DNA from: Escherichia coli
GTDB taxonomy: Bacteria; Pseudomonadota; Gammaproteobacteria; Enterobacterales; Enterobacteriaceae
Reading direction: 5' to 3' (one strand)
DNA length: 64,000 nucleotides
Assembly: GCF_003334405.1 (NCBI RefSeq)
Contig: NZ_QOWM01000006.1
Positions 61,901 through 64,000 of the stretch are shown here, in pieces. Position numbers: made by a program. The first letter of the stretch is position 1. Each line of letters starts with the position of its first letter.

Positions 61901-64000
61901 GTTTTACTGGCGGCGTCTAACAGGTTGTTATCCAGCCCCAGCACCACATCGGCTTTACTGTTTTTGCCTTCCATCCGTAGACGGTTGAGAAGCGAAACGC
62001 CATCTTCCAGCGCCACCAGTTTCAGTTCGCAATTACAGTCGGCTTCAAAGGCTTTTTTAACCACCGGACCAGGCCCCCAGTCGGCGGCGAAGGAATCGTA
62101 GGTATAAACAGTCAGAACGGGTTTAGCGAAAACGGGCGCTGTGCACAGCAACAGCAGGGGCAGACATTTTTTTAACACTTTGCACCTCAAAAAAGAGTGG
62201 CAAAGGACTTGAGAAGGAGCCTCAAATCCCTTCGCCGGCGTTATCCGGATCAGGTTCGACGGGTATTTTCTCAGCGCACGCGTACGCGTGGCACCCCGTT
62301 GAGAACGGCGTTAGTGTAGTGATTTTGTTATCAACCAGCAATCATGGATCCGGTGGCGCAAACCACGCTGATTTAAAATCGAACCAGCCGAGGGTATTCA
62401 TGCGCAGGCCGCGCATACTGCGTTGCCCCTGAATGATCAGCCAGTGGTGCAATAATGGCACCATCGCTTTGCTGGCGACCAGTTGCTGGCACCAGTTCGC
62501 CAGATTCATCTCGCCATTGCGCCAGCGAGCAGCGTCGGCTTGCCAGTCAATGGGAATGCAATGTTGTAGCAGTGGCACTTCGCATAAATGTGCGAAAACA
62601 GAGAAGTCCAGCGGCAGGGTAAAGTTGGCGCTGTTTAGCCAGATATCACTTTCGATCTCTCCTGTATGCCACTGATCGTAGTCGATCTCTTTGATTTTCA
62701 GCGTGACCTGGTGACTTGCCAGAATCTGCTGCATGATCCCGGCAATCACCCGATGCTCACTGTGATCCTGATAAAAGGTTAGGGTGAGGCTTTCCAGGCC
62801 AGCCGGTTTTTCGCTCTTTATGGTGCGGGCATGGTGCCAACGGGGGAGCAGTCCATAAGCCGGGAACCACAGTTGCTGGTACTGTTCCTCAGCGAAATAG
62901 ACCAGATTAGTTGGAGAAAGCACATAGCTTACCCAGTCCCTGACTTGCTGATTCGCCCCGCGATGGGTGCGGCTGTCGAACAGTAAATAGTAGCAACCTT
63001 CCTCCAGGCGGCTTTCAATCTCTTTTTCCTCGCCCTGTGGACCTTTTAGCATCAGCCCTCCGGCTGGCTCGTCGGCAATTTCCGGCAGAACCCAGACGTT
63101 AACTTCGTCGATTAATGCCCGGTAACCGAAGAAGTCATCGAATGCCTGAATTTTCAGTTGATTGGTGCTGTTGCGAATCACCGCATACGGACCGGTGCCG
63201 ATGGGATGGCTGGCAAAGTTACTGAGGGTTTCCCATTCGCGCGGCAGGATCATCGCCGGAACTTGCCCCAGCAGTAACGGTAACCAGCGGTCCGGTTGCG
63301 TGAGATGGATATCCAGCGTCCAGGGCGTCGGCGACACAATGTCAGCAATATGCGAATAGAGCGGCAGCGTATTGATTCGTTTTAAAGAGGCGATCACATC
63401 GTCCATTTCCAGTTCACGACCATGGTGAAAATGGACTCCTGGACGCAAAAAGAAACGCCAGTGAAGCGGTGAAATTTGCTGCCAGTGGTGGGCGATGTCT
63501 GCTTCCAGTTCCCCATTTTCCTCATTTATGCGCGTTAGCGAACTGAAGATTTGCCGGGCGATATGGGTTTCGGAACGGCGCAATGCGCTGCCAGGTAGCA
63601 GATTACGCAACGGACGATAGTAGAGCACGCGCAGGATGTGCCGCCCCTGGCGGAAGCTGCGGCCCAGATGAGAAACCAGCATTTGCCGCACAGTCGCTTT
63701 GTCGCCAACCAACTGCACCAGTTGATCGATACGATCCTGCTCTAGCAGGTCTTCCGCCCGCTGTTGCTGAAGCGCCAGCCCGGTATAGAGGAATGTCAGA
63801 CGCGAGCGTTTACCGCGCCCGACTTCCGCTTCCCACGTCAGCCAGCCGCGATCCTGCATGGTGTTGAGCAGGGTGCGCATATGACGACGCGAGCAGCTCA
63901 ATAACGCTGCCAGTTCGTTGAGCGTTGTGTCCTGCGATTTACCCTCGCAGCATTGCCACAGGCGGATGAACTGTTGTTGCAGACGAGCAGATGGCATAAA

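Follow-up and report, generated by a model that had tools for sequence, protein, structure and literature searches.

The leader of thiB is one of the three textbook TPP riboswitches of Escherichia coli, and that of thiM, which controls translation, is known in crystal structure. For thiB (tbpA), Berman et al. 2023 (PMC10578472) reported TPP-dependent repression of a reporter that is lost in aptamer point mutants (a published example is G17C) and abolished by a mutation weakening the sequester stem and its pairing with the ribosome-binding site. In that work, the 3′ half of the segment linking aptamer and expression platform was essential and the 5′ half dispensable; the 3′ half, which repeats the 5′ arm of P1, pairs with the P1 3′ arm (the ‘substrate strand’ of those authors) in an ‘antisequestering’ stem, a helix that is backed by mutagenesis and SHAPE-Seq. 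Mutations favoring P1 biased the switch OFF, and those favoring the antisequestering stem biased it ON. Chauvier et al. 2021 (PMC8609307) studied nascent tbpA transcripts, for which they gave a Kswitch of about 227 nM, with pausing at sites 104, 117, and 136 and sensing of TPP only within a co-transcriptional window that is bounded by the anti-P1 stem’s formation, which places translation under kinetic control. Here we compare with these descriptions a locus within a stretch of 64,000 nucleotides from E. coli (RefSeq assembly GCF_003334405.1, contig NZ_QOWM01000006.1), hereafter the window, for which a first-pass annotation made from the sequence alone had proposed a TPP riboswitch at 62210-62305 on the minus strand, between sgrR and thiB.

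Searching positions 60000..64000 with Rfam cmscan at the gathering threshold returned RF00059 (TPP) as the sole match, located at 62209..62308 on the minus strand with 65.9 bits (gathering score, 54.3; E 6.5e-12); the match spans model positions 1-105 of 105 and is untruncated. A scan of the whole 64-kb window returned the same RF00059 match at the same coordinates (E 1e-10). The interval proposed beforehand lies inside this match, falling short of its 5′ end by a few bases, and the covariance-model hit, the lack of which had been named as the outcome that would overturn the proposal, is significant and above the curated Rfam threshold. Thus, a real riboswitch was recognizable from raw sequence alone, with nearly exact coordinates. 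In the cmscan alignment every helix pairs, P1 closes the P2/P3 and P4/P5 arms in a three-way junction, and the only NC marks are at two positions of a stem deleted from this RNA. The THI-box sequence elements invoked in the first-pass annotation are also present. For this family they comprise CUGAGA, in the pyrimidine-sensor arm, plus, in the pyrophosphate-sensor arm, ACCUGAUC..GG.UAA..CC.GCG.AGGGA; here, CUGAGA and ACCUGAU both align to upper-case consensus positions (Table 1). CUGAGA is invariant among the orthologues considered below, though the pattern used to fetch these demanded it. Elsewhere in the 64-kb window, four other Rfam matches exceed their gathering scores, at 248..400 (−), 16194..16246 (+), 21422..21492 (+), and 53393..53458 (−); they comprise the sok antitoxin RNA (118.3 bits), the ES003 sRNA (87.4 bits), and two copies of naRNA4 (64.3 and 60.2 bits).

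Table 1 Coordinates, in the 64-kb window, of the thiB leader elements and the neighboring genes
Feature	Coordinates	Strand	Basis or remark
TPP riboswitch aptamer (THI element)	62209..62308	−	Rfam and RefSeq delimitation
P1 5′ arm CUCAA	62299..62303	−	cmscan structure line; RNAalifold, 19 orthologues
P1 3′ arm UUGAG	62221..62225	−	common to P1 and the anti-P1 helix
CUGAGA, THI-box core, pyrimidine-sensor arm	62269..62274	−	invariant consensus positions, cmscan alignment
ACCUGAU	62249..62255	−	upper-case consensus positions in cmscan alignment
P4/P5 arm with ACCUGAU and GCGAAGGG, pyrophosphate-sensor helix region	62229..62255	−	cmscan; RNAalifold P4, P5
sgrR (551-aa ORF)	62342..63997	−	ORF list and RefSeq
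thiB (tbpA), 327 aa, periplasmic thiamine/TPP-binding protein, first regulated gene	61195..62178	−	RefSeq mapping and ORF list
thiB start codon GTG	62176..62178	−	RefSeq CDS start
thiP, permease	59609..61219	−	RefSeq and ORF list
thiQ, ATPase	58927..59625	−	RefSeq and ORF list
thiP and thiQ jointly, same operon as thiB	58927..61219	−	RefSeq and ORF list
Candidate −35 hexamer TTGCTG of the thiB promoter	62336..62341	−	read from sequence; inferred
Candidate −10 hexamer TACACT	62313..62318	−	conserved position; inferred
Anti-P1 (antisequestering) helix 3′ arm UCUCAAGUCC	62205..62214	−	pairs with GGAUUUGAGG at 62220..62229
Sequestering hairpin	62178..62205	−	constrained fold, P1 forced
Shine-Dalgarno GAGG	62185..62188	−	6 nt before GTG

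The aptamer occupies a leader position, 5′ of a thiamine transport gene and on its strand. Flanked by the sgrR stop codon (62342) and the GTG start of thiB (62178), it shares its strand with the two genes; the 3′ arm of P1 reaches to 43 nt upstream of the GTG, and thiB is followed by thiP and thiQ. Both the ORF list and RefSeq give sgrR and thiB-thiP-thiQ as the flanks, as had been proposed along with the minus-strand orientation. The statement that no coding sequence covers the element likewise holds for the RefSeq annotation, and the only overlapping ORF is an unannotated antisense frame of 40 aa with a GTG start (62197..62319, plus strand), which runs across the whole riboswitch and is most likely a mechanical ORF. 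Megablast against complete E. coli genomes found the 351 bases at 62100..62450 to be 100% identical to K-12 MG1655 and to many other strains, and matched this query in 5400 of 5426 genomes at an identity of at least 90%. In MG1655, RefSeq gives the order sgrR, a feature labeled ‘riboswitch / TPP riboswitch’ that maps exactly to 62209..62308, thiB, thiP, and thiQ. This annotation and two dedicated papers (PMC10578472, PMC8609307) bear out the earlier description of the riboswitch as a known element: it is not novel, having been annotated in RefSeq and dissected experimentally. We are nearly certain that the element is the E. coli thiB (tbpA) TPP riboswitch in the leader of the thiBPQ (tbpA-yabK-yabJ) thiamine ABC-importer operon, and this confidence applies to the explanation as a whole, i.e., the aptamer, the switch between anti-P1 and sequester helices, and co-transcriptional OFF control of thiB. 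By contrast, the probability that we are looking at a chance resemblance or a decayed, nonfunctional relic is vanishingly small, considering the E value and the score above the curated threshold, conservation in essentially all E. coli and, together with the expression platform, across Enterobacterales, and the experimental demonstration of function (PMC10578472, PMC8609307).

The probable start of transcription is near 62308, and the promoter would directly adjoin the sgrR stop codon. The candidate −35 hexamer, TTGCTG, begins one base past this stop codon and is separated by 17 nt from the candidate −10 hexamer, TACACT, whose counterparts in the enterobacterial thiB leaders examined (TACACT, TACAAT, or TAGAAT) lie upstream of the P1 5′ arm at a constant distance of 7-9 nt. 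From inspection by eye and from the conservation of the −10 position, we infer that this pair is a candidate for the thiB promoter. A sigma-70 consensus scan of 62000..62600 called no promoter, having missed the pair because its hexamers match the consensus at just 8 of 12 positions. The candidate −10 fits the published start site near 62308, and the literature takes as transcription start the 5′ end of the aptamer, at about 62308. The construct of 142 nt in PMC10578472, which begins at the start site and includes the first 12 nt of thiB, corresponds to 62308..62167 (nt 1 is 62308 and nt 142 is 62167). In the numbering of that study, nts 5-9 (UCUCA) correspond to 62304..62300, nts 85-89 (UGAGG) to 62224..62220, and nts 95-99 (UCUCA) to 62214..62210. 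In Salmonella, 5′ RACE located the shared start of SroA and tbpA 129 nt upstream of the GTG (PMC3511261), a position that agrees with a start near 62307-62308 here.

The sequence between sgrR and the promoter differs among strains. In about 1047 of the 5400 matched E. coli genomes, including O157:H7, O55:H7, and O139:H1, the match is split at the sgrR stop codon. At the O157:H7 locus (L002, 4991..6000), an island of ~1 kb with the T3SS effector gene espY2 is found between sgrR and the thiB promoter, with a junction corresponding to window positions 62343-62345. The candidate −35 TTGCTG and all downstream sequence are kept in this genome, and SgrR is annotated one residue longer.

A scan of 62000..62600 for intrinsic terminator-like sites found none in the leader, which fits translational control. 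It also implies that any transcriptional layer must be factor-dependent, and termination by Rho upon TPP-blocked ribosome loading has been reported for thiM and thiC. At thiB, Rho-dependent termination inside the gene could lower thiBPQ mRNA when TPP blocks ribosome loading, either besides or instead of the block in translation. Bastet et al. 2017, using RNAP ChIP-qPCR and the Rho R66S mutant, obtained a termination score of 3.0 for thiB and attribute control of Rho-dependent termination to thiB, thiC, and thiM (PMC5499598). With this the results of Berman et al. 2023 are in conflict, since only full-length transcripts were obtained in vitro with rising TPP and bicyclomycin left TPP repression unchanged (PMC10578472). 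However, the reporter used in PMC10578472 carried just 12 nt of thiB, so that termination within the ORF could not show. As the sole mechanism, Rho is contradicted by the sequester-stem mutant data. We consider the involvement of Rho at thiB possible while leaning against it; if true, Rho gating inside thiB would reconcile Bastet 2017 and Berman 2023. Control of translation by occlusion of the ribosome-binding site, the reading that we prefer, was examined by folding the leader.

The folds contain two alternative helices downstream of the aptamer core. In the unconstrained minimum-energy fold, GGAUUUGAGG (62229..62220) pairs with UCUCAAGUCC (62214..62205) in the anti-P1 helix; UCUCAAGUCC repeats the sequence of the P1 5′ arm, and the helix shares its UUGAG strand with P1. 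When P1 is forced to form, a sequestering hairpin is present in which CUUUGC (62200..62205) pairs with GCAAAG (62178..62183) and CUC (62195..62197) with GAG (62186..62188). Within this hairpin are both the Shine-Dalgarno sequence, three of whose four bases have unpaired probabilities of 0.00-0.01, and the first base of the GTG, i.e., a helix hiding both the Shine-Dalgarno sequence and the start codon forms when P1 is formed. A different occluding pairing, between the second CUCAA (62209..62213) and UUGAGG at the Shine-Dalgarno sequence (62185..62190), was discarded as ViennaRNA never chose it, whether the RNA was folded freely, with P1 forced, or as the platform only; in the orthologues, the Shine-Dalgarno sequence pairs instead with the pyrimidine stretch after UUUGC.

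A purely thermodynamic two-state switch was also dropped, the kinetic one from the literature being preferred. Contrary to expectation, the Shine-Dalgarno sequence stays largely paired even without P1: the unconstrained minimum-energy fold also keeps the sequestering hairpin (unpaired probability of 0.03-0.16 for three Shine-Dalgarno bases), so that this hairpin and the anti-P1 helix coexist in equilibrium folds. When an extended anti-P1 helix of 13 bp was forced, Shine-Dalgarno accessibility reached only about 0.4, in a state 2.5 kcal/mol above the minimum. Equilibrium folding therefore barely opens the ribosome site, and the ON state is not explained by thermodynamics alone. Such weak equilibrium switching in the models fits the published kinetic model, and the ON state would rest on the published kinetic and mutational data.

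The proposed mechanism joins the aptamer, its genomic context, and the two conserved alternative helices, all computed here, to TPP binding, translational repression, and kinetic control as reported in the literature. The first ~88 nt would fold into the three-way-junction TPP aptamer, and binding of TPP to the nascent aptamer would lock P1 (CUCAA/UUGAG). With P1 locked, the downstream CUUUGCCACUC would be free to pair with GAGGUGCAAAG, a pairing that would bury the Shine-Dalgarno sequence GAGG and the first base of the GTG and thereby block thiB translation (OFF). Without TPP, the repeat of the P1 5′ arm that the linker contains (UCUCAAGUCC) would invade P1 and form the anti-P1 helix with GGAUUUGAGG, which could extend into GAAGGG/CCUUU. 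This helix would disrupt the aptamer and take up part of the sequestering arm, such that ribosomes could start (ON). The choice between OFF and ON would be made co-transcriptionally, within a short window that closes when the anti-P1 helix forms.

Comparison across species provides independent evolutionary support for the published strand-displacement model. A DNA-pattern scan for the aptamer 3′ half in a collection of species-representative genomes yielded 120 loci, about 45 of which have a ThiB homologue directly downstream. We analyzed 26 enterobacterial thiB leaders (ThiB 65-100% identical, MG1655 copy included), which are phylogenetically related and in which the aptamer 3′ half is fixed by the search pattern. 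Their shared layout consists, from the 5′ side, of the P1 3′ arm UUUGAG, a linker variable in sequence and length (4-45 nt), CUCA(A/G)..UCC, and CUUUGC; next come a pyrimidine-rich stretch and a loop, which vary, and after these the Shine-Dalgarno sequence, GCAAAG, and what remains of the GTG start. In nearly all orthologues, GCAAA is followed by GTG. The ‘invader’ of the anti-P1 helix stays directly beside the sequester arm across Enterobacterales, and it is the upstream half of the linker that varies. Across the 26 leaders, pairing between the aptamer 3′ end and the 12 nt immediately 5′ of the sequester arm averages −12.1 kcal/mol, compared with −5.7 kcal/mol for shuffles, and in 24 of the 26, despite the range of linker lengths, the anti-P1 pairing surpasses 95% of shuffles. 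In Plesiomonas, where the helix is weaker, the P1 3′ arm reads UUGGGG and the invader CCACCAA, which, judged from the sequences, looks like a compensating change.

Pairing in the sequester helix is conserved, with 92.3% of cells paired across the 26 orthologues as opposed to 27-52% for slid controls, and double changes are seen at three pairs, e.g., from A-U to G-C at columns 18/43. Its upper stem shifts register between genera, which limits the support from covariation: RNAalifold on the expression platform recovered only the invariant lower stem of 6 bp, with a covariation term of zero. On the aptamers of 19 orthologues, RNAalifold recovered P1, P2, P4, and P5, all nearly invariant; due to this invariance, these helices and the lower sequester stem yield no covariation signal. 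P3 was left unaligned by MAFFT because its lengths vary. Both its sequence and its length differ in each genus, and the examples read by eye are still hairpins.

Several of the loci retrieved depart from the E. coli arrangement. In Citrobacter werkmanii (L008, about 9780..9905), the thiB TPP aptamer is 211 nt long, owing to an insertion of ~125 nt in the P3 loop. The core of this insertion (GTGAATCCCCAGGAGC...GTGACTGGGGT) appears to resemble an ERIC/IRU repeat. P3 arms are also enlarged in Pluralibacter (L068) and at a further locus (L083), which suggests that P3 may tolerate the insertion of repeat elements. In Providencia sp. (L076), the platform as read by eye differs in having an ATG start and a Shine-Dalgarno sequence, AGGA, that appears to pair with UCCU, with which the anti-P1 arm ends on its 3′ side. 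In Providencia, the two helices would then be directly mutually exclusive, a cleaner switch than that of E. coli. Outside the enterobacteria, the aptamer core pattern was found directly upstream of ThiB homologues with 33-45% identity in Treponema, Spirochaetales, and Bacillota (loci including L009, L042, L050-L053, L059, L060, and L018), indicating that the pairing of a TPP riboswitch with thiB reaches well beyond Enterobacterales.

The thiB leader has also been studied as the source of a short RNA, SroA or sYJ20, and a stable aptamer fragment of ~93-100 nt could additionally act in trans as a small RNA, independently of the control of thiBPQ in cis. In Salmonella, an SroA/sYJ20 transcript of ~100 nt accumulates under tigecycline or tetracycline, and its deletion causes a subtle survival defect that is complemented from a plasmid while tbpA transcript levels are unchanged, and a part in antibiotic tolerance, in trans, has been proposed for the fragment (PMC3511261); the tbpA regulator has moreover been predicted to join small RNA regulation (PMC8609307). 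However, the phenotype is weak and belongs to Salmonella, no upregulation was found in E. coli (PMC3511261), no target has been demonstrated, and a short 5′ fragment is the expected by-product of a structured leader. In our comparison, the aptamer, anti-P1, and sequester elements account for every conserved block. A trans-acting role of the fragment is therefore improbable, although, if true, it would link thiamine status to other genes. Overall, it seems rather unlikely that the thiB leader does more than control translation in cis, be it by gating Rho termination inside thiB or through SroA in trans, and nothing in the sequence requires either.

The element analyzed here and the E. coli thiB (tbpA) TPP riboswitch, or SroA, as given by RefSeq, Chauvier 2021, and Berman 2023, are the same, without any difference. 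Among the other TPP riboswitches of E. coli, that of thiM shares with thiB its Rfam family and the P1-P5 three-way-junction aptamer, and in both, the ligand-stabilized P1 permits the Shine-Dalgarno sequence and start codon to be sequestered (PMC10578472, PMC8609307). They differ in the P3 stem and in the sequences of the expression platform, as well as in what they control, which is salvage kinases for thiM and a transporter for thiB. Coupling to Rho is reported for thiM, whereas the evidence for thiB conflicts (PMC5499598 vs. PMC10578472). The thiC riboswitch shares with thiB the aptamer class and ligand, the OFF direction, and co-transcriptional sensing at pause sites (PMC5234074). In contrast to thiB, thiC is under strong Rho-dependent transcriptional control (score of 12 vs. 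3.0 for thiB; PMC5499598); its start codon is the site of a regulatory pause, and the operon that it controls is biosynthetic. The yxjA purine riboswitch of Bacillus subtilis differs in aptamer class and ligand, and it acts through an intrinsic terminator and not a hairpin that hides the ribosome-binding site. Nevertheless, it is an OFF switch that works by strand displacement through an intermediate ‘central helix’, and as in thiB, this intermediate helix rivals both the P1 of the aptamer and the fold of the expression platform (PMC10578472).
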